Position numbers and translations under genes: made by a program. A DNA stretch of 43,950 nucleotides from Candidatus Kaiserbacteria bacterium (GTDB lineage Bacteria > Patescibacteriota > Minisyncoccia > Phycocordibacterales > UBA918), in the NCBI GenBank assembly GCA_024653575.1, contig JANLIJ010000068.1:1-43950 (forward strand), in the 5' to 3' direction. The first letter of the stretch is position 1; each line of letters opens with the position of its first letter. The notes under the pieces were generated by a model that saw nothing but the letters and a program-made list of their open reading frames with translations, had not been told where the DNA came from and did not search any database. Of the stretch, positions 7,423 through 19,992 are shown piece by piece.

Positions 7423-7469
7423 TACTACTAAACCCCGCGCGACCGGAGGTCGCGCGGGGTTTAGTAGTA
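7423..7469. terminator. 22-bp perfect hairpin (terminator-like)
   Basis: TACTACTAAACCCCGCGCGACCggaGGTCGCGCGGGGTTTAGTAGTA; every position pairs. Confidence 0.6.
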
Positions 7470-7527
7470 TGAAACCTTAAAATAAACAGCGGTAAGAAAA
7501 GCAGGCGTCTTGCGTCACAATGAATAT

Positions 7528-7779
7528 ATGTACGAGCGATTCAATAATTACACACTCACACGCCCCCGCACTAAAAAAATCGTCGGGTGGTTTCTTGTTG
7601 TTTTTGGTTTCATCGCACTCATTACTCCACTCACCCCTGGAGGACTGCTCTTTTTCATCGGCCTAGAAATACTCGGACTTCGTTTCATCGGTACAGAAAA
7701 AGTGAAAAGCTTTTTTACACGACGTACCCCATTTGTTGCCCCCGAAACGATTACTGTTGATACCCAAACAAACTCCTAA
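7528..7779 (+). CDS. small membrane protein, PGPGW-like
   Basis: Two TM segments with the TPLTPGGLLFFIGLEILG motif. Start placed at the first ATG; the ORF track opens at a TTG at 7510. Confidence 0.55.
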   Translation: MYERFNNYTLTRPRTKKIVGWFLVVFGFIALITPLTPGGLLFFIGLEILGLRFIGTEKVKSFFTRRTPFVAPETITVDTQTNS

Positions 7780-7799
7780 ATTTACGGTATACTTGAAGA

Positions 7800-8444
7800 A
7801 TGAGAACACGAATCTTCACAGTCATAGTTATGACGCTCTGCGTCACCCTCGTGTGGCTCTTCTTTACGGAAGAACACACGATAGTAAAACGCTCACTCTG
7901 CACCGATGAATCTTTGATGTGCCCCGACGGAACAATCGTCGGAAAAGTTGCACCGAGCTGTGCATTTGCACCATGTCCCACAGTGAACACCCCTCCTGAC
8001 GTTGTTGTAGAAGATGATTTTGTCGCCTGTACCATGGATGCAAAAATATGCCCCGATGGAAGTGCGGTCGGGAGGACTGCTCCAAATTGTGAATTTGCAG
8101 AATGCCCACAACCCACCATGCCTATAGTCGTGACTTCTCCACTACGAGACCAAGAAATTACTTCACCGGTTATCATCTCAGGCAACGCCCGAGGCACATG
8201 GTTCTTTGAGGGGTCATTTCCTATTTCAATCGTCAACTGGGATGGACTCATCATTGGTGAAGGAATCGCACAGGCACAGGGGGAATGGATGACTGAGGAC
8301 TATGTTCCATTCACCGCCACTCTTTCGTACACTCTTGCAACAGGAACTCCATACAACCGTGGTGCAATCATCCTTAAAAAAGACAACCCTTCAGGTCTCC
8401 CGGAACATGACGCTTCAATAGAAATTCCGGTTATACTTCGATAG
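7800..8444 (+). CDS. secreted/anchored protein: two CPDG Cys-rich modules plus a C-terminal Gmad2-like Ig domain
   Basis: N-terminal TM segment. Tandem modules CTDESLMCPDGTIVGKVAPSCAFAPCP and CTMDAKICPDGSAVGRTAPNCEFAECP. The C-terminal stretch ISGNARGTWFFEGSFPI...ATLSY is Gmad2-like. Confidence 0.65.
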   Translation: MRTRIFTVIVMTLCVTLVWLFFTEEHTIVKRSLCTDESLMCPDGTIVGKVAPSCAFAPCPTVNTPPDVVVEDDFVACTMDAKICPDGSAVGRTAPNCEFAECPQPTMPIVVTSPLRDQEITSPVIISGNARGTWFFEGSFPISIVNWDGLIIGEGIAQAQGEWMTEDYVPFTATLSYTLATGTPYNRGAIILKKDNPSGLPEHDASIEIPVILR

Positions 8445-9098: not shown

Positions 9099-9866
9099 AT
9101 GTTTGAAAAATTTCTTGAAGAAATAGGCCTTTCTGAAAAAGAGGCAAAAATATATCTCGCACTTCTTCAGGTTGATAGCGATTCAATCCATGACATCGCC
9201 ACCAAAACAAAAATCAATCGCACGACAGTGTATCCTGTTCTTGAGTCTCTAGGAAAAAAAGGTCTCGTGAGTGAAACTCAAGATGGCAAAAAAACGCTTT
9301 ACCAAGCAGCCGCTCCAGAACGGCTTGAAACCTATATGGAGCGGCAGAAAGTAGTGCTTCAAGAACAATCTGCCCGTCTTAAAGACATAATCCCGCAAAT
9401 CAAAAGTATCCAAAGAGAACAAGGTGAAAGACCAATAATAAAATACTTTGATGGTCGTGACGGAGCCATTTCAGCATATGAAGAGTTTTATAGCTTTGAT
9501 CCAAAGAAAAATGAAACTGGTTACTTTATATATAACAGAGATCTTGTGAGCGAAACATTCACTGAGGAAGAGAGAAAGAAATTTTTAACAATTCGCTATA
9601 CCAAAACGGTAATTCCCAACTCAATATACACAAACAAAGATGGTAAAATGGAATTTACTACACCTGGTATACGGACTAGAATTGACAGTGGCGAAAAATA
9701 TCCAATTTTAGCTGATATTACTATTATTGAAGATAGGATTATTGCGGTAACACTCGGAAACGTCATATCATCTGTTCTAATCAAAAGCAAAGACCTCGCA
9801 GTAACGCTAAGCTCTCTTGTGCGCTATATTAACGATACATCAAAAAATGAAAAGGGCGGGAAGTAA
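9099..9866 (+). CDS. TrmB-family transcriptional regulator (paralogue of 145..930)
   Basis: GLSEKEAKIYLALLQVDSDSIHDIATKTKINRTTVYPVLESLGKKGLV, with a C-terminal domain collinear with the first copy. Confidence 0.8.
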   Translation: MFEKFLEEIGLSEKEAKIYLALLQVDSDSIHDIATKTKINRTTVYPVLESLGKKGLVSETQDGKKTLYQAAAPERLETYMERQKVVLQEQSARLKDIIPQIKSIQREQGERPIIKYFDGRDGAISAYEEFYSFDPKKNETGYFIYNRDLVSETFTEEERKKFLTIRYTKTVIPNSIYTNKDGKMEFTTPGIRTRIDSGEKYPILADITIIEDRIIAVTLGNVISSVLIKSKDLAVTLSSLVRYINDTSKNEKGGK

Positions 9867-9888
9867 TCAAACTTCCCGCCCCTGTTTT
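9854..9888. terminator. bidirectional terminator overlapping the stop codon of 9099..9866
   Basis: GGGCGGGAAGTaatcaaACTTCCCGCCC, with T-runs on both strands (ctgtttt on plus; ttttcatttttt on minus). Confidence 0.75.
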
Positions 9889-10137
9889 GCCATGTTTCAC
9901 ATAAACGTTTTGTTATGCGTCAATGCTGAAACTACACAAGTCGCGTTCGCGCGAACTGATGAACCACTAGGAATCACCCACGATTTTCACTCCTTACTTA
10001 AGAACAAATGCGCATGATGCGCCCTTCACTCACTCTAATTTAAACTCCACAGGGTCGTTTTAGTCCTTCTTTTCCAAGCAAAGCTTGGAAAAGAAGGGTT
10101 AGAAGTCGCCCATGACGTTCTCCTTAAAGATGAACTT
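9889..10137 (-). ncRNA. candidate leftward non-coding transcript of about 250 nt with two 4-codon mini-ORFs
   Basis: Bounded by the minus-strand promoter at 10144..10171 and the terminator at 9854..9888. The only reading frames with a strong SD are the mini-ORFs: AAGGAG-n6-ATGGGCGACTTCTAA (10099..10113) and AAGGAG-n8-GTGGGTGATTCCTAG (9967..9981). Confidence 0.45.
10065..10097. repeat. 15-bp perfect hairpin (CCTTCTTTTCCAAGC aaa GCTTGGAAAAGAAGG)
   Basis: Read directly from the sequence. On the minus strand it starts 1 nt after the stop codon of mini-ORF 1. Confidence 0.8.
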
Positions 10138-10143
10138 ATTGCT

Positions 10144-10171
10144 AGTATATCAGGTTCTTTTATTGTGTCAA
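10144..10171 (-). promoter_or_regulatory. near-consensus sigma70 promoter (leftward)
   Basis: Minus strand reads aatattgcTTGACA, 16 nt, TATACT. Confidence 0.6.
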
Positions 10172-10306
10172 GCAATATTAACTACATATGTCAACTTTGT
10201 GAACGAATTAATGTTATTTTGTTAGTATAAATAGTCTATTTTAATAGGCTATTTTCTTTATTTATCAACGTTTTTGTGAATAATTGACTTTTCTTGTCAA
10301 TATTGC

Positions 10307-10334
10307 TTGACAAGATTTTAAATAGGAGTATAAT
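10307..10334 (+). promoter_or_regulatory. consensus sigma70 promoter (rightward)
   Basis: aatattgcTTGACA, 16 nt, TATAAT. An 8-bp inverted repeat (CTTGTCAA/TTGACAAG) overlaps the -35 element. Confidence 0.65.
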
Positions 10335-10340
10335 ACCCGT

Positions 10341-11109
10341 GTCAGGTTAGAAAAACATTTGGTTGCCACCGTAAGGGCACAAGACCAAATATTCACTGGC
10401 TATAAATTAAGTTTTCTAAGATGTATCGGTTGCCGAGCATATCGACAGCCGAATACATCCCAGAAAATGAGTTCTTTGAAAAAATGCGGACTTTCCGCAG
10501 CTGCGCCTCGGGTACTGGGGTAGGGGACTGTTATGCTCGTACAGAAAAATGGCCGTTGGTACTACTACTCCTGGACAACTGGGTATGTGGCTATCAAGCC
10601 TCCACGTAAGTGAGGCGGTGCAGTAGACGTTGGAGGTGTGTTACGTAGCAACAGAACCCTCCCGTTTGTCCCCGTTCGTTATATGGAGAGTCCAAGGGAA
10701 GCAGAACCCTCCGGTATAGACTCCGAGACAAAAGTCACAAAATGGTGAGTGAGTGCATTCCGCACGCTCACCACCTTTATCAGGTTCATCACTCAGTGGT
10801 GAGTCTGTAGAGATTTGTTCTTTGCAAGATGAAGATACGCCCACAGTACTGTGTTTGCATATATCACTATGTCATCACAGTACTGTGGGTGTTTGGAGAG
10901 AACGCACATAGGTAACCCGTATCGGACGGTCGCTTTGCCAAGAGCGAATGCCGATTAATGCGGTGGTGACATGGTCACGGTTGGACGGCTGGTTTGTCTA
11001 ACCAAACTACCTTCGCGAGGGTAGTGGGCATCAAAGTATCGATGCAGTCCCTTTGGCGGGGACATCTCTCTGGGGAAAGGTGGTAATTCCGCCCCTTTCC
11101 CCTTCTGTC
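10341..11109 (+). ncRNA. candidate large structured non-coding RNA or processed leader (about 770 nt), 3' end defined by hammerhead cleavage
   Basis: Lies downstream of the consensus promoter. No convincing ORF. Many perfect helices, for example 10840-10853/10876-10889 (14 bp) and 11072-11080/11094-11102 (9 bp). Family not recognised. Confidence 0.5.
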
Positions 11110-11157
11110 CACGAGTGTGTACTCGTGCTGATGAGCTCGAAAGAGCGAAACAGATGG
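11101..11157 (+). ncRNA. hammerhead ribozyme, type III topology
   Basis: CCUUCUG-UC|CACGAGUguguACUCGUG-CUGAUGA-GCUCgaaaGAGC-GAAA-CAGAUGG. All invariant core nucleotides are present, all three helices are correctly placed, and there is a GUC cleavage triplet. Confidence 0.9.
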
Positions 11158-11177
11158 TCTTTGAATATTTTTCTTGG

Positions 11178-11220
11178 TTGGTGGAATCAGTTTGTACACA
11201 GTACTGATTGATTCCACCAA
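11178..11220 (+). promoter_or_regulatory. strong hairpin immediately 5' of the RBS of 11234..11596
   Basis: TTGGTGGAATCAGT (11178-11191) pairs with 11207-11220 (about 14 bp including one G-U). SD GAGGAG at 11222. Confidence 0.6.
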
Positions 11221-11233
11221 CGAGGAGAAAAAA

Positions 11234-11596
11234 ATGAAAAACTGGCTCAAAGGTTTTGGTATCGGGTTACTCATGATTATTGTTGCGTTCGTGACTGCTT
11301 TTGTCGCGGACCTCACGGTAATCGTGCAGACTGGGGACCAGGTACCGCTGTATCATCTTTTCGTGATACTTCTGGTAACTTGGTTTTGCGAAGTGATTGT
11401 CCTCATTCCGTACGGATCAATACCACGCAAAGTCACATGGGATGCCTTTTTGGCACGAAGTGTATTTGTGTGGTTGCCTGTCGGTGCGGGATGGTACCTC
11501 GCTCACAACGTGTCGGCCTCTGCATTTTTGGTGGGACTCATAATCTCGTCAACTTGTGTGGGGTACAACATCGTGGTGACCAACGTCGAGAGATAG
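11234..11596 (+). CDS. small integral membrane protein (about 4 TM), unknown function
   Basis: SD gaggag 6 nt upstream of the ATG. 120 aa with four hydrophobic spans. ORF track 11174..11596. Confidence 0.6.
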   Translation: MKNWLKGFGIGLLMIIVAFVTAFVADLTVIVQTGDQVPLYHLFVILLVTWFCEVIVLIPYGSIPRKVTWDAFLARSVFVWLPVGAGWYLAHNVSASAFLVGLIISSTCVGYNIVVTNVER

Positions 11597-11678
11597 TAGT
11601 TCGACGATAAACCTCTCCGCGATTCTCTTCCGCGTGTAGATGAGAAAGGTTTTGTGATACACCTTAAAAAGGCCACAT

Positions 11679-11699
11679 GGAGAAAACATCGTTTTCTCC
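11679..11699 (+). terminator. hairpin of inter-cassette module A (terminator-like)
   Basis: GGAGAAAACatcGTTTTCTCC, followed by tcttcatacacttttt. Confidence 0.5.
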
Positions 11700-11803
11700 T
11701 CTTCATACACTTTTTGGAGTTTCGGAGATTGTTAGAGATTACGTTCTTTGAATACCGCGAATTCCTTCGCACCGCGCCTCGGGTACTGGGGTAGGAGACC
11801 GTC

Positions 11804-12064
11804 ATGGCTGAGAAACAAGTCTGCGCTGTGTGCCGTACCACTGGGAAGCTTGGTGCTGAGTGGACTGCGCAAATCGGCGATGACCGACTCCGCGTCCACA
11901 AGCCCTGTGGCCAGCGCCTCGCAGAGACCGCGCCCGTGGGAGTTGTCGTCAAACTCTCCCCCAGTCCGGAGCTTCGCGAAAGCTGGAAACAGCAATCCCG
12001 CGAACGCCAAGTGCGCGACTTCTGGAAAGGGAAGTTTGCGTCGGCAGGAGCTCGCGCGCCGTGA
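11804..12064 (+). CDS. small hypothetical protein with CxxC...HxxC motif (zinc-ribbon-like?)
   Basis: SD AGGAG 7 nt upstream. MAEKQVCAVCRTTG...W...HKPC. GC-rich. Confidence 0.5.
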   Translation: MAEKQVCAVCRTTGKLGAEWTAQIGDDRLRVHKPCGQRLAETAPVGVVVKLSPSPELRESWKQQSRERQVRDFWKGKFASAGARAP

Positions 12065-12077
12065 GGCGCGCGGTTCA

Positions 12078-12097
12078 GGAGAAACACCCGTTTCTCC
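12078..12097 (+). terminator. hairpin of inter-cassette module B (paralogue of 11679..11699)
   Basis: GGAGAAACacccGTTTCTCC, followed by actttatacagttt. Confidence 0.45.
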
Positions 12098-12168
12098 ACT
12101 TTATACAGTTTCTAAATAGTTTGGAGATTGTTAGAGAACTGTTCTTTCATCACACAAAGGAGACTCAT

Positions 12169-12450
12169 ATGCACACGACACAGATTGAGCTTTTCATCGG
12201 GTACGAGAAAGTGCCGACGGCACTTCAGGACGGTGACGTTCTTGTCGTGACCGAGCGCCATGGGACCGTCGGTTTCGTCCGAAATGGTACCCCCCTCAAA
12301 CGGAAAGAGGGGGACGACAAGTTCATCGCATGTGGCGCCTGCGTCACACAAGCTCTGATGTTCTTCGGCATCAGTACCGAGCTCGTGTCCGATGTGGACG
12401 GTGTCAAACTTTACCAGCTCCATATGCGGAGCGAAGAGACCCCATCGTGA
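12169..12450 (+). CDS. small hypothetical protein (93 aa)
   Basis: SD AAAGGAG 7 nt upstream of the ATG at 12169. ORF track 12061..12450. No family recognised. Confidence 0.5.
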   Translation: MHTTQIELFIGYEKVPTALQDGDVLVVTERHGTVGFVRNGTPLKRKEGDDKFIACGACVTQALMFFGISTELVSDVDGVKLYQLHMRSEETPS

Positions 12451-12464
12451 TGGGACAGCCTCTC

Positions 12465-12492
12465 GCGCGTGACCAACGGTCGCGCGCTTTTT
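12465..12492 (+). terminator. intrinsic terminator closing the cassette
   Basis: GCGCGTGACCaacGGTCGCGCGC plus TTTTT. Confidence 0.75.
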
Positions 12493-12567
12493 CTTGGAAG
12501 TATTCTGTACTGAACCCAAGTCAAACCATCTTAGTAAAGCATTGGTGCATTGTGCTACTATATTTTT

Positions 12568-15263: not shown

Positions 15264-16190
15264 CTACCCCCTCGAATGAAACTTCTTGTGAATATCTCTG
15301 AGGTGTTTGTCGGTGACGTGGGTGTATATTTGCGTCGTTGCAATGTTGGCGTGGCCGAGGAGCGCCTGCACGGAACGAAGGTCAGCGCCGTTACTCAAGA
15401 GGTCGGTAGCGAAGCAATGTCGGAGTTTGTGGGGAGTGACTTTACGCGTGATGCCTGAGATTGTTGCATACCGCTTGATGATGCGTTGTACGCTACGGGG
15501 AGTGAGGCGGAGGTCGATGTTTTTTTCATCATTATGCTTTGCATTTTTTCCATACTGAATGAACATTGCATCATCAAAGTCTTTTCGCTCCTTGAGGTAC
15601 GCCTTAATAGCATCTCGTGCGGTGTCTGAAAGAAACACTACACGGACTTTGTCACCCTTCCCTCGAATTGAAAATTCGTCACGAGTAAGATCAACGTCCT
15701 CCTGAGAAAGGGAACAGAGTTCTGAGACACGGAGGCCAGTCGAGAAGAGGAGTTCGAGAATTGCGCGGTCTCGAAGACCACTCAGTGTATTGGAATCAGG
15801 TGCCTCGATGAGACGCGTGAGCTCGGCAGGGGAGATGAGGTCAAGTGAACGCTCGGGAACCTTCGCAAGTTCAATGCGCTCGGGGTTGAGCGACTCTATA
15901 CCACGCTTGCGAAGATATTTAAGGAAGGCACGAAGCGCGATGAGGTAATAGTTCTGTGTTTTGCGCTTCAGTGTCTCCACATTTCGACCAACTTTTGTTC
16001 CTTGTTGCCGATTGAGCCAGAGGCGGTACTCACGTACCTGTGTTTCAGTAACATCCTTTGGGCCGTCTACCTTTGCATACTCTAAAAAGCGAGTGAGGTA
16101 GTGATCGTAGTTCCTGACAGTGAGAATACTGCGCCCCTTTTCAATTTCGAGGTATTCAAGAAACTCACGTTTTAGTTCTTTGAGCGTCAT
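15264..16190 (-). CDS. xerC: tyrosine recombinase, XerC/XerD-like
   Basis: N-terminal SAM-like core-binding domain. Catalytic residues R...HKLRHCFAT...LLGH...TQIYTHV. Confidence 0.85.
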   Translation of the reverse strand: MTLKELKREFLEYLEIEKGRSILTVRNYDHYLTRFLEYAKVDGPKDVTETQVREYRLWLNRQQGTKVGRNVETLKRKTQNYYLIALRAFLKYLRKRGIESLNPERIELAKVPERSLDLISPAELTRLIEAPDSNTLSGLRDRAILELLFSTGLRVSELCSLSQEDVDLTRDEFSIRGKGDKVRVVFLSDTARDAIKAYLKERKDFDDAMFIQYGKNAKHNDEKNIDLRLTPRSVQRIIKRYATISGITRKVTPHKLRHCFATDLLSNGADLRSVQALLGHANIATTQIYTHVTDKHLRDIHKKFHSRG

Positions 16191-16290
16191 ACCTATATAT
16201 AGTACACGAGAAGTGTCGCAAAATATTGCTTCATTCCACACCAATATCCTAAAATGTAAAAGCCCGAAAGCGGTGGGCTTTTACGGGCTT

Positions 16291-16997: not shown

Positions 16998-17570
16998 ATG
17001 ACCGTAATCAAACACAAAGAACAGCGCGTCGCTATTTTTATCGACACACAAAATCTCTATCACAGTGCAAAGAATATCTATCGGGCAAAAGTCAATTTTG
17101 ACGCAGTTATTAAGGCGGCGCTCGGCGACCGAAAGCTCATTCGTGCTATTGCATATGTGGTCACCACCGAGAGCGGGGAGGAGCAGTCCTTTTTTGAAGC
17201 GCTTGAAAAGATTGGTATTGAGGTAAAGACAAAAGACCTCCAAATCTTTTTTGGTGGGGCAAAGAAAGCGGACTGGGACGTTGGGCTCGCAGTCGATGCA
17301 ATCAAACACTCCCAGAAGGTGGACTCTATTGTTCTCGCCTCAGGCGACGGCGACTTTGTCCCTCTTGCTGAATATGTGAAATCACAGGGATGTCAGGTTG
17401 AATGTATTGCCTTTGGAAAATCGAGTTCATCACGACTCCGTGAAACGGTTGACGACTTTATCGACATGGACGACGCGCCACACAACTTCCTCATCGGACT
17501 CAGGCCGAACAACAAACTCAAAAGACAGGTTCGAAAGATTGTCGGGACCGACACTGACGATAACGATTAG
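16998..17570 (+). CDS. NYN-domain (LabA/DUF88-like) putative RNase
   Basis: RVAIFIDTQNLYHS...IAYVV...VLASGDGDFVPL are NYN/PIN-like acidic motifs. Confidence 0.8.
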   Translation: MTVIKHKEQRVAIFIDTQNLYHSAKNIYRAKVNFDAVIKAALGDRKLIRAIAYVVTTESGEEQSFFEALEKIGIEVKTKDLQIFFGGAKKADWDVGLAVDAIKHSQKVDSIVLASGDGDFVPLAEYVKSQGCQVECIAFGKSSSSRLRETVDDFIDMDDAPHNFLIGLRPNNKLKRQVRKIVGTDTDDND

Positions 17571-17581
17571 CAATATTACAC

Positions 17582-17616
17582 AAAACACCCCACGGCATAA
17601 GCCGTGGGGTGTTTTT
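17582..17616 (+). terminator. intrinsic terminator
   Basis: AAAACACCCCACGGCataaGCCGTGGGGTGTTTT plus TT. Confidence 0.8.
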
Positions 17617-17856
17617 TATTCCCATCTTTGATACACTCTGTTCATTATAAGGAGTGATTTGGATAGGTGGGTTTCAAGCATGTTGTTTGAAATTCAAAAT
17701 TCAAATCACTCAATAACGTAATAAATTAGAACGTTCATAGGTGGATACAGTTTGAGGAGAAACAAATTTTTCGAGTGACACGTACTCAAATGTACGATGA
17801 ACGAGAAAAATGAAGATTCAACGAAAAAATGTGCCACCTATGGGCGTTATAACAAT

Positions 17857-19992
17857 ATGGAAAAGAAATCATATACCGTTGACCTCGAAGGGAAAACACT
17901 CACCGCCACCTTTACCAACCTCACCAATCAAGCGCATGGTTCTGTCATGGTGGGCATGGGTGAGACGGTTGTCCTCGTCACCGCAGTCATGAGCAAGCAC
18001 ACCGCAGGGAACATGTCGTACTTCCCACTCTCTGTAGAATTTGAGGAAAAGTTTTATGCTACCGGACAGATTCTCGGGAGCAGGTTCCAAAGACGTGAAG
18101 GCCGTCCGAGCGACGGTGCTGTCCTTTCGGCGCGTATTGTCGACCGTACCATTCGGCCACTCTTCAACCATGGTATTCGAAACGAAGTGCAGGTGGTTGC
18201 AACCGTGCTCAGCGCTGGTGAAGATGATCCTGATGTACTCGCTGTTATCGGAGCATCACTCGCACTCGGTGTCTCAGATATTCCATGGGACGGACCAATC
18301 GGCGCTGTGCGTATTGGGAAGCGAAAGGATACGGGAGAGATTGTAATAAACCCAATGTATACCGAGCGTGAAGCGGGAATACTCACCTATGAAGTGCTCG
18401 CCTGTGGAAAGGACAACACCATCAATATGATTGAAACGGCTGGATTTGAAATCAGTGAGGGGGAAGTCGTACACGCACTCGAACATGCAGTGACACTCAT
18501 TACGAAACTCCAGGAATTCCAGAACACGATTATTCAGGAAATTGGAAAAACAAAACGTGATGTTGCAATTCCCGAGCTCGATGAAGCAACGCTCGCGCTC
18601 TTCACGGAGCGTATTGCTCCAAAGCTCACAACTACTCTCTTCAGCAACCAATCGGGGAAGGCACACCTCTACGAACTCAAGGATGAATGGCTCACACTTT
18701 TGGGCGAGGCTATTCCTGATGCATCAGCGAGTCTTGCAGGAGAATATTTTGAACATGCAGTGGATGTGGAGCTCCATCGTGGCGTCATTCACGACAAGGT
18801 CCGTCCCGATGGGCGCGGTATGGATGAGGTGCGTCCACTCTTTGCACAAGCTGGAGGCATTAGCCCCGCACTCCATGGATCGGGTATTTTCTATCGTGGT
18901 GAAACGCACATCTTTTCTGCACTCACCTTGGGTGGCCCTGATGATTCTCAAATACTCGACTCCATAGAAGAGAACGGTACGAAGAAACACTTCATGCACC
19001 ACTACAACTTCCCACCATTCTCAGTCGGAGAGACGGGACGCGTGGGAGGACAAAATCGCCGTATGATTGGTCATGGTGCACTCGCTGAGAAAGCACTCTT
19101 TGCCGTCATTCCAGAAAAGACAGAGTTCCCGTACACCATCCGACTCGTTTCAGAAACGATGGCGTCGAATGGTTCGAGCTCTATGGGTTCGGTCTGTGCA
19201 TCGACACTCGCACTCATGGATGGAGGAGTTCCTATCAAGCGACCTGTCGCAGGTATTGCATCGGGGCTCATGATGGATGACCACAATACCTATCAGCTCA
19301 TCACCGATATCCAAGGACCCGAAGATGAACATGGCGATATGGACTTCAAAGTAGCGGGGACGCGCGAAGGAATTACCGCAATTCAAATGGATGTAAAGGT
19401 GGGAGGTATCCCCGTACCTGTTCTCGCCGAAGCACTCGAGAAAGCACGCGTTGCCAGACTCCACATTCTTGAAACACTCGAAGCTGAAATCGGCGCACCG
19501 CGACCTGACATCTCACCGCGTGCACCAAAGATTATTGTGATGCAAATTAATCCTGATCAAATCGGACTCGTCATTGGTGGAGGTGGAAAAACCATCAACG
19601 GCATTAAGGATGAAACTGGTGTCGATGAAATCACCATCGAAGATGACGGCACGGTATATATCACCGGAAAGGCGGGCGCTCCAGAACTTGCGCGTGCGCG
19701 CATCGCTGACCTTACGAGAGTCTTCGCAATTGGTGAAAGACTTGATGCTGAAATAACACGCATAGCGACATTCGGCGCATTTGCACGAATTGGTGGGCAG
19801 AGCGAAGGGCTCATCCACATCTCTGAGATTGTGTCATGGCGCCTTGAAAATCTCGATGGCATTCTCAAAGTCGGAGACGTTGTCCCTATTGTCGTCTCAA
19901 AAATTGAAGATGGGAAAATCGGTCTCTCAATTAAAAAGGCAGACCCCGAGTGGGCAGAGAAGAAGGGACTCAAGGCTCCCGAGAAGAAATAA
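17857..19992 (+). CDS. pnp: polyribonucleotide nucleotidyltransferase (PNPase)
   Basis: Two RNase PH domains, then KH (VIGGGGKTI) and S1 (GLIHISE) domains. Start chosen at MEKKSY; the ORF opens at 17797. Confidence 0.93.
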   Translation: MEKKSYTVDLEGKTLTATFTNLTNQAHGSVMVGMGETVVLVTAVMSKHTAGNMSYFPLSVEFEEKFYATGQILGSRFQRREGRPSDGAVLSARIVDRTIRPLFNHGIRNEVQVVATVLSAGEDDPDVLAVIGASLALGVSDIPWDGPIGAVRIGKRKDTGEIVINPMYTEREAGILTYEVLACGKDNTINMIETAGFEISEGEVVHALEHAVTLITKLQEFQNTIIQEIGKTKRDVAIPELDEATLALFTERIAPKLTTTLFSNQSGKAHLYELKDEWLTLLGEAIPDASASLAGEYFEHAVDVELHRGVIHDKVRPDGRGMDEVRPLFAQAGGISPALHGSGIFYRGETHIFSALTLGGPDDSQILDSIEENGTKKHFMHHYNFPPFSVGETGRVGGQNRRMIGHGALAEKALFAVIPEKTEFPYTIRLVSETMASNGSSSMGSVCASTLALMDGGVPIKRPVAGIASGLMMDDHNTYQLITDIQGPEDEHGDMDFKVAGTREGITAIQMDVKVGGIPVPVLAEALEKARVARLHILETLEAEIGAPRPDISPRAPKIIVMQINPDQIGLVIGGGGKTINGIKDETGVDEITIEDDGTVYITGKAGAPELARARIADLTRVFAIGERLDAEITRIATFGAFARIGGQSEGLIHISEIVSWRLENLDGILKVGDVVPIVVSKIEDGKIGLSIKKADPEWAEKKGLKAPEKK

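Follow-up and report, generated by a model that had tools for sequence, protein, structure and literature searches.

Introduction

Clusters of hammerhead ribozymes flank variable genes in prophages and cut polycistronic constructs of ~2 kb in vitro (PMC3088659, Perreault et al. 2011). The role of self-cleaving ribozymes in bacteria is still largely open (PMC6765202). We analysed positions 10341-11109 of a 43,950-nucleotide (nt) stretch of DNA from a Candidatus Kaiserbacteria bacterium (contig JANLIJ010000068.1), referred to below as the window. This interval had been predicted to encode a single large structured non-coding RNA (ncRNA) of about 770 nt. We found that it is not one evolutionary unit; it is a mosaic of five parts. 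It is likely to be the promoter-proximal part of a cassette operon of Parcubacteria, punctuated by a hammerhead and located beside a TrmB-like regulator. The locus appears to belong to the known clustered-hammerhead kind; what is new is the host, a member of the candidate phyla radiation (CPR), the link to a regulator and a leader, a junction module, and cassettes free of any open reading frame (ORF).

Organisation of the interval

We compared the interval with syntenic loci of Parcubacteria, in which a TrmB-like regulator gene is followed by an array and a hammerhead. These loci are contigs encoding homologues of a 120-amino acid (aa) membrane protein and of the TrmB-like regulator, and are given here by their L numbers. 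Five parts were distinguished, all read on the + strand: a leader with covarying hairpins (a, 10341-10532), a predicted 26-aa gene with a signature of synonymous changes (b, 10533-10613), a 3' segment that aligns with L147 and L013 and is present in L150 (c, 10614-10735), a junction module of which many loci have copies at their cassette boundaries (d, 10736-10823), and a 286-nt ORF-free, hairpin-rich RNA cassette whose 3' end is the predicted hammerhead cleavage site (e, 10824-11109). A full-length homologue of window 10105-11154 is found in L147 (3212-4509). The segments differ in phyletic distribution, as (a)-(d) are common to L150 and (e) is replaced there.

The same layout is conserved in Parcubacteria including Ca. 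Lloydbacteria. A TrmB-like gene is followed by an AT-rich region that holds TTGACA/TGTCAA palindromes together with a near-consensus promoter, then by an array of short cassettes, a hammerhead, a long hairpin with a Shine-Dalgarno sequence (SD), and the next gene. In the window, the interval is flanked by the TrmB/BlaI-like regulator on the left and by the gene of the 120-aa membrane protein (11234-11596) on the right.

Folding was scored as the z value of the minimum free energy (MFE) against dinucleotide shuffles. For 10341-11165, which is the interval plus the ribozyme, z was -9.4 on the + strand and -7.5 on the - strand. By segment, we obtained -8.3 to -8.6 for 10824-11109, -4.7 for 10736-10823, -3.4 for 10341-10532 and +0.3 for 10533-10735; the baseline of 286-nt tiles across the whole window had a mean of -0.7 (sd 1.9). 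All eight helices listed in the original prediction were found to be complementary as claimed, the two bulged ones once the bulge is allowed (matches for the others: 10357-63/10384-90, 7/7; 10485-90/10494-99, 6/6; 10743-49/10767-73, 7/7; 10840-53/10876-89, 14/14; 11072-80/11094-102, 9/9; and 11055-59/11089-93, 5/5). The last of these, proposed as a pseudoknot, is not kept in the homologue L147. The repeats were also found, CAGAACCCTCC at 10652 and 10702 and CACAGTACTG at 10842, 10876 and 11197, but the third copy of CACAGTACTG is not kept in L016, which is 94% identical there, and L147 has no equivalent hairpin at its position. Substitutions of the G.U type fit the + strand, which is supported as the sense strand.

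We used four-fold degenerate sites to judge how much of the similarity between genomes is meaningful. In the flanking TrmB and cupredoxin genes these sites differ at 64-70%, so the neutral background is saturated, and the similarity of (b), (c) and the 5' part of (e), at 83-94% identity, is not neutral. Non-coding sequence that can be aligned between these genomes is either constrained or recently exchanged.

Micro-gene and its 3' segment

The original prediction held that the interval lacks any convincing gene. We found instead that the 26-aa ORF at 10533..10613 on the + strand (MLVQKNGRWYYYSWTTGYVAIKPPRK), with its conserved frame, start, stop and SD, looks like a genuine protein-coding gene under purifying selection. 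Its predicted product is identical in L147 and L148 (26/26), and all 5 nucleotide differences are synonymous third positions. In L150 the product (MLVKINGVWYVYTWASGYVRVQPPRK) shows 3 synonymous and 10 non-synonymous codons and no indel (read by eye). Relative to the window, the L013 product (MQLVKRNGQWYVYSWVKGYVPVKIPPR) has three whole-codon indels; among its sense codons 7 differ synonymously and 8 non-synonymously, and the frame stops at TAA, in contrast to the TGA of the window. Start, stop and SD are conserved in four lineages, the SD being AGGGG/AGGAG 8-9 nt 5' of the start in all homologues. The peptides share the invariant pattern W-Y-x-Y-[ST]-W..G-Y-V..P-P-R. No Pfam family was found for the micro-ORF, and a degenerate DNA pattern for its homologues gave only seven chance matches in viral contigs.

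The stop codon of the micro-gene sits in a conserved hairpin, and CCUCC repeats are found 3' of it. Segment (c) (10614..10735, + strand) contains this stop-codon hairpin (CCUC..GAGG) and two CAGAACCCUCC repeats. Its identity is 83% to L147 and 76% to L013 1523-1608; in L013 a hammerhead lies directly 3' of it. Single-nucleotide indels relative to L147 indicate that (c) is non-coding. The micro-gene would encode either a small protein or a leader peptide of the arrest type. The invariant aromatic residues, the PPR(K)-stop ending, the stop-codon hairpin and the downstream CCUCC repeats suggest the second possibility, in which the peptide would be regulatory and not an effector acting on its own, though we hold this idea with low confidence.

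Hammerhead ribozyme

The interval ends within a type III hammerhead at 11104..11154 on the + strand, with a predicted cleavage site between C11109 and C11110 and the GUC ending at 11109. The motif consists of stem I (11110-15/11122-27), CUGAUGA (11128-34), stem II (11135-38/11143-46), GAAA (11147-50) and stem III (11104-08/11150-54). We aligned 17 related hammerheads, among them three from the IMG/VR viral contig L008 and one from L007. In this alignment 96.5% of cells were paired, compensatory changes were seen in 12 of the 15 pairs, and the CUGANGA/GAAA core was invariant, while controls with slid partners lost the signal. Judged by this covariation, 11104-11154 is a validated hammerhead motif.

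Hammerheads were present in 9 of the 11 independent arrays examined, and every one examined has a hairpin directly 5' of the cleavage site. The numbers per array are one in the window, two each in L010 and L150 and five in L013; the other boundaries in the window are junction modules. The viral contigs L007 and L008 (IMG/VR) carry hammerheads with a near-identical core and a window-like loop-1 pattern. In L008 three of them lie within ~2.6 kb, which suggests that the ribozyme type is shared with phages.

Downstream of the ribozyme, an inverted repeat forms a long hairpin, UUGGUGGAAU..AUUCCACCAA, followed by the SD GAGGAG (11168..11233, + strand). The same combination of hairpin and SD follows hammerheads in L010 (twice), L013, L016, L017 and L018. 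Next comes the 120-aa membrane protein gene (11234..11596, + strand), whose homologues P0001-P0007 are 55-99% identical and are each preceded by a hammerhead in L010, L013, L016, L017 and L018. The protein matched no Pfam, PHROGs or PADLOC family, and for the cassette proteins PHROGs and PADLOC were uninformative.

We propose that the hammerhead would self-cleave the nascent polycistronic RNA at 11109/11110. The upstream product would then end with the hairpin 11072-11102, seven further nt and a 2',3'-cyclic phosphate, giving a protected 3' end. The downstream mRNA would begin with the folded ribozyme and the long hairpin before the SD, giving a protected 5'-OH end.

Junction module, leader and 5'-UTR motif

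The junction module (10736..10823, + strand) consists of hairpin A (10743-10773), CUUUAUCAGGUU, a second hairpin and UGUAGAGAU-UUG-UUCUUUG. In the comparison of L001 with L004 it reads as hairpin A, CUUUAUAAAGUUU, a second hairpin and UUAGAGAU-N3-GUUCUUU. At least eleven copies exist, and eleven were aligned: window 10743, 11679 and 12078, one from L001, one from L017, and two each from L004, L016 and L018. Hairpin A forms in all of them from a sequence that varies almost from copy to copy, and it was out of register in the MAFFT alignment. Within the window, the junction and untranslated region (UTR) motifs are confined to 10340-12500. In L001 and L004 the junction module and the 5'-UTR motif each stand upstream of unrelated small genes.

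The exact 20-mer GCCTCGGGTACTGGGGTAGG gave one real match (L001) and one chance match in public genomes, and one real match (L004) and three chance matches in metagenomes; its 18-mer version had no match in viral contigs. We also considered whether the module is read as a peptide (FLHFIxFLN..RELFF..APRVLG*). This was rejected, as the copies do not share one frame and an in-frame TAG stop is present in L001.

The operon leader (10341..10465, + strand) is predicted to be closed by an outer helix GUCAG/CUGGC and contains the hairpins 10357-10390 and 10420-10459. RNAalifold on the window, L147, L150 and L152 gave compensatory double changes in 5 of 28 pairs, with few pairs broken. In L152 the same leader stands upstream of a different first gene. 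It is followed by a 5'-UTR motif (10485..10532, + strand) composed of a small covarying hairpin (10485-10499), GCGCCTCGGGTACTGGGGTAGG and an SD. In the L001/L004 comparison this motif reads as a small hairpin, GCGCCUCGGGUACUGGGGUAGGAG, 5 nt and AUG. It lies just 5' of different start codons in L001, L004, L018, L019, L150 and L013, and its hairpin stems vary yet stay complementary (TGCGGA/TCCGCA, GCGAA/TTCGC, GCGAC/GTCGC, TGCC/GGCA). The interval is tied to the next ORF-poor stretch, 11600-12500, by short repeats, among them one of 33 nt (10503-10535 and 11774-11806, 91% identical).

Cassette exchange

We found that the slot occupied by (e) is exchangeable. L150 shares 10106-10823 with the window, but where (e) would follow it has a 102-aa gene. 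From the edge of hammerhead stem III onward (window 11096-11754), L015/L016 match the window at 94% identity; upstream they are unrelated, and there L016 has a junction module followed by a different cargo of ~280 nt with a z of -1.4. In L017 a junction module is followed by a 320-nt ORF-free RNA (86-407, z -12.7) and then by a hammerhead. The conserved junction and ribozyme sequences may serve as the breakpoints for cassette exchange.

Analogous ORF-free cassettes gave z values of -12.7 (L017), -8.1 and -10.1 (L013) and -7.8 (L010). Some have hammerheads on both sides, namely two in L013 (~950 nt at 1640-2592 and ~335 nt at 2593-2927) and one in L150 (~350 nt). The ORF-free products of L013 2593-2927 and L150 about 7440-7770, hammerhead-bounded in this way, could in principle circularise. 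All-against-all BLASTN of the ORF-free cargos revealed no relationship except between L010 and L013, and none of the cargos shares detectable sequence with (e).

The related pair are ORF-free RNAs of about 870-900 nt, L010 2176-3038 (z -7.8) and L013 1690-2592 (z -10.1). They share the blocks TCATACATGAA..GGAATTGTAATAAGCC and GGCCGAG..AGGAATCTCGAAAAAA.TCCTTGCTGTY. A hammerhead stands at the end of both, and in L013 another one precedes the RNA. As a candidate new large ncRNA, this ~900-nt RNA is stronger than the window interval. Two patterns derived from it were scanned against viral contigs: one had no matches, and the second gave >120 matches, none with the upstream CATACATGAA, which were treated as chance.

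The ORF-free cassette

Cassette (e) (10824-11109) has an MFE of -130.5 kcal/mol. Three elements are predicted in it: a long hairpin on the 5' side (10837-10892), another hairpin on the 3' side (11072-11102), and between them a domain of several hairpins that 10896-10900/11066-11070 closes. The 14-bp helix that had been described as perfect consists of two copies of a palindrome, since the 12-mer CACAGTACTGTG is its own reverse complement. The only homologue of (e) is in L147/L148, and nhmmer with a profile of the window and L147 found no further ones in all fetched loci. Identity to L147/L148 is 88% over 10824-10923, which is the long 5' hairpin and the next 30 nt, 48% over 10924-11033, where there is a 66-nt insertion, and 70% over 11034-11109. 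Two one-sided substitutions in the long hairpin (G.U<->A-U and C-G<->U.G) keep pairing on the + strand only.

As for its role, (e) is most likely cis-acting, as a structured tail or a processing spacer, and its hairpin of 17 bp or more could plausibly be cut by an enzyme of the RNase III type. Alternatively, release of (e) may yield a small structured RNA.

Regulator, promoter and palindrome

The winged-helix TrmB/BlaI-like regulator is encoded at 9099..9866 on the + strand (Pfam TrmB, E = 5e-17) and has >450 homologues at E < 1e-30. Its gene adjoins the array in L010, L013, L018, L147, L150 and L152, and is divergent from the array in L004 and L019. The promoter TTGACA-16-TATAAT is present at 10307-10334 on the + strand (element 10292..10334) as predicted, with 12/12 consensus matches. 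Promoters of the same type are found at the equivalent place in five loci (L013, L010, L018, L150 and L152). An operator-like palindrome, CTTGTCAA-N6-TTGACAAG (10292-10315), overlaps the promoter at its -35 element and is identical in L150. The TTGACA/TGTCAA palindromes of the window are found within 10160-10320. The TrmB-like protein is a probable repressor of the array promoter, which it would control through this palindrome.

On the minus strand, a divergent promoter (10171-10144, TTGACA-16-TATACT with TG) is directed away from the array. A good terminator lies downstream of it (9883-9852), and the predicted transcript is ~290 nt (region 9845-10171). It contains two tiny ORFs, ATG GGC GAC TTC TAA (10113-10099, MGDF*) and GTG GGT GAT TCC TAG (9981-9967, MGDS*), both preceded by a consensus SD. 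Equivalent pairs were seen by eye in L150 (MGDG*/MGDS*), L013 (MGDG*/MGDHITM*), L152 (MGEG*/MGEE*) and L010 (MGDGS*/MGGDS*).

Remainder of the array and neighbouring genes

After the membrane protein gene, the array continues on the + strand with a post-ORF element, AAACCUCUCCGCG-N9-CGCGUGUAGA, which forms a small hairpin with conserved flanks (11606-11641), and a junction module with leader motif (11679-11803). These are followed by an 86-aa CxxC gene with an SD (11804-12064; homologues in L147, L013 and L010), a junction module (12078-12160), a 93-aa gene with an SD (12169-12450; homologue in L147) and a terminator (12465-12487). The part 11606-12487 is 81-83% identical at the nucleotide level to L147 5752-6115 and 7043-7357. 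The 86-aa and 93-aa genes lie hidden among overlapping spurious ORFs. The post-ORF element follows many cassette ORFs in L004, L010, L013, L017, L018, L019 and L150; in L013 it runs directly into hammerheads, and in the window no ribozyme follows it.

A tyrosine recombinase is encoded on the - strand ~3 kb beyond the array (15264-16244), and in L147 one abuts the array (7438-8010, - strand). The whole of contig L004 (Ga0172373_10053581, 3443 nt) is bounded by ~240-bp terminal inverted repeats. Besides genes for a TrmB-like protein and an AAA-type kinase it carries a small cassette operon, in which there are two junction/leader modules. L004 may be a small mobile or linear element with the same system. 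The other neighbours in the window are ordinary chromosomal genes (ABC-F, SurA-like, ComM, UvrD, PNPase and genes like those of type IV secretion systems). The most stable 286-nt tile of the contig, 17447-17732 (z -9.9), lies directly 5' of the PNPase gene (17797-19992) and is probably the pnp leader.

Database searches

No Rfam family was matched at gathering thresholds in the whole window or in nine related loci. At E up to 10, region 9800-11800 gave only spurious matches to miRNA-type hairpins and a weak HH9 match, and at E up to 1, L010 gave nothing but sub-threshold hammerheads and spurious hairpins. A tRNA/tmRNA scan of the window found none, and BLASTN of 10300-11240 against phage and plasmid collections gave no match. 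Full-text literature searches for papers that connect hammerheads with genomes of CPR, Parcubacteria or Patescibacteria found none.

Discussion

Several points weigh against reading the interval as the start of a hammerhead-punctuated operon. The - strand folds well too (z -7.5). Transcription, cleavage and translation are all deduced from sequence. In Rfam the window hammerhead is sub-threshold (HH9 at 11110-11182, 20.5 bits vs 52), as is the one of L010 (Hammerhead_3, 33-36 bits vs a threshold of 48.5, E = 6e-5); short stems and an unusual conserved loop 1 may account for such low scores. Cassette (e) has one independent homologue, since L147 and L148 do not differ over the stretch that they share, and its centre is unconserved. 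Its long-range helices are invariant, so that their pairing stays putative, and the array of the window has only one hammerhead, so that the 5' end of (e) is a tentative one. The junction module may be a terminator, a processing site, a promoter or a relic of a ribozyme. Finally, the identity between the window and L147 from (b) into the first part of (e) (e1) could reflect recent transfer of a cassette rather than constraint; the all-synonymous pattern of the micro-ORF argues for constraint there.

The alternative that survives best, although it remains a minority view, is that (e) is a free-standing trans-acting RNA (small RNA, decoy or protein-binding RNA), one of a family of cargos released by ribozymes. 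This would fit its z of -8.6 and the 88% conservation of the 5' hairpin and adjoining 30 nt against a saturated neutral divergence, and also the retention of the closing helices despite the gain of 66 nt in the centre. Analogous ORF-free cassettes exist in L013, L017, L150 and L010, some of them hammerhead-flanked on both sides, and elsewhere the junction module precedes independent cistrons. However, (e) has a single independent homologue, the cargos share neither sequence nor motif, and the cargo that L016 has in this slot, with a z of -1.4, shows no unusual degree of structure. The near-perfect hairpins of (e) are more typical of processing or stability elements than of RNAs with a tertiary fold, and (e) lacks a defined 5' end in the window.

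A broader version of this idea appears somewhat less probable still. The TrmB-linked arrays of Parcubacteria may be a widespread system carrying exchangeable RNA cassettes, with the ORF-free RNAs as functional products excised by hammerheads; with the same reserve, (e) at 286 nt, the cassettes of 290-350 nt in L013, L017 and L150 and the ~900-nt RNA of L010/L013 would be examples. If this were true, ligation of the 5'-OH and 2',3'-cyclic-phosphate ends of the doubly flanked cassettes could give circular RNAs, and the biogenesis of retrozyme and viroid-like circular RNAs would have a cellular counterpart, encoded in DNA, in ultra-small bacteria.

It is improbable that the hairpins and palindromes act mainly as DNA, i.e. 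as recombination or protein-binding sites in the manner of integrons, with RNA folding incidental. In favour of this, content switches exactly at the conserved junctions or at the hammerhead, there are two copies of the self-complementary 12-mer CACAGTACTGTG, folding of the - strand is nearly as good, and a tyrosine recombinase is found at the far end of the array in L147 and ~3 kb off in the window. On the other hand, the substitutions keep G.U pairs on the + strand only, and stems that covary between copies are a poor fit to recognition by one protein at a common site. A reading of the modules revealed no core sites of the attC type, and the recombinase is distal and convergent, unlike intI.

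We consider it very unlikely that the transcript is a polycistronic small-peptide RNA that includes the 28-aa ORF (10829-10915) and/or the 62-aa ORF (10421-10609). These ORFs exist as originally described, and at the position of the ATG of the former, after the same module, a real gene begins in L150. Yet the 28-aa ORF has no SD, and its codon 6 is changed from CAG to TAG in L147, inside the stretch that is 88% identical. The 62-aa ORF spans a region with insertions of ~170-250 nt in L147 and L150. From this part of the original prediction, only the 26-aa ORF was retained.

Hardly more credible, and if anything slightly less so, is the reading of the whole of 10341-11109 as one large structured ncRNA like GOLLD, ROOL, OLE or HEARO, released by the hammerhead, which we regard as largely refuted. 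It would account for the strong promoter, the scarcity of long ORFs and the extreme z of the whole stretch, and ORF-free RNAs of 870-950 nt do occur at the same locus in L010 and L013. The latter have no sequence similarity to the interval, however. The absence of an Rfam match, the conserved micro-gene inside, a z of about 0 for 10533-10735 and the separate distribution of the segments among relatives all speak against a single RNA. What stands is that the interval appears promoter-driven, its promoter being conserved in five loci, and that much of it is structured ncRNA: the leader hairpins covary, and (e) is exceptionally stable, with ends that are conserved.

A 141-codon gene at 10533-10958 with UGA read as glycine (genetic code 25) is refuted: a related contig (L001) is labelled Gracilibacteria, the frame 10524-10958 is open when only TAA and TAG count as stops, TGA ends just one of the 19 clear window genes (TAG 10, TAA 8, TGA 1) and some module copies translate into similar peptides, but the real genes of the window contain no in-frame TGA, strongly avoided TGA still functions as a stop in threonine synthase and the micro-ORF, the micro-ORF of L013 stops at TAA, single-nucleotide indels relative to L147 occur beyond 10613, and the module copies read the same nucleotides in different frames, with an in-frame TAG in L001.

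With the interval read as the head of a ribozyme-punctuated operon, its content is largely explained, and the type of locus is apparently a promising, undescribed setting for bacterial ribozyme biology. It offers a tractable and apparently widespread natural case for the roles of self-cleaving ribozymes in bacteria, combining a conserved regulator and promoter, a tiny first cistron that seems to be under strong selection, ribozymes at exchange breakpoints and some cassettes that consist of very stable RNA alone. If confirmed, it would show that CPR bacteria with minimal genomes punctuate their operons with ribozymes, and it would add a conserved 26-aa protein and several orphan structured RNAs, one of ~900 nt, to the RNA biology specific to CPR. 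It also carries a warning for annotation, as intervals that look ORF-poor and helix-dense can conceal micro-genes and are not necessarily single ncRNAs.

Comparison with known systems

The interval resembles the large RNAs GOLLD, ROOL, OLE, HEARO and raiA in size range, in its ORF-poor look, in its dense helices and in that mobile or prophage-like contexts are frequent. It differs from them in matching no covariance model and in being a mosaic with a coding gene, and its helices are mostly long, near-perfect hairpins, not irregular multi-domain folds.

TnaC-type peptides are regulatory arrest leader peptides with a conserved sequence. The micro-gene is similar in being an ORF in the range of 24-26 codons at the 5' end of an operon, in encoding a conserved peptide with Trp residues and a Pro near the stop, and in having structured RNA directly downstream. 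There is no sequence homology, however, and a small protein is equally possible.

In T7-like phages, polycistronic early mRNAs are processed by RNase III. The arrays are comparable in their long hairpins between cistrons, and cutting would leave protective stem-loops at the mRNA ends. In the window, by contrast, cutting is predicted to be at least partly the work of a ribozyme, and a part for RNase III is speculative.

Like integron arrays, the locus has short variable cassettes, conserved hairpin junctions and a content that differs between close relatives. Unlike them, it has no intI beside the promoter, the only tyrosine recombinase being convergent and 3 kb past the array, and no attC core pair (RYYYAAC / GTTRRRY) was noted when reading the junction alignment. 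The junctions of the window are RNA-like, with strand-specific G.U pairs and a ribozyme, and each cassette has its own 5'-UTR signals.

The clustered hammerheads of prophages (Perreault et al. 2011) share with this locus type III ribozymes between short cistrons of inconstant identity, and the predicted cutting of a long transcript into gene-length RNAs. The array described here differs from them in being chromosomal in CPR/Parcubacteria and tied to a TrmB-like regulator with its promoter/operator. It adds a second recurring element, the junction module, and besides genes it carries ORF-free structured cassettes, of 286 nt in the window and up to ~950 nt in its relatives.

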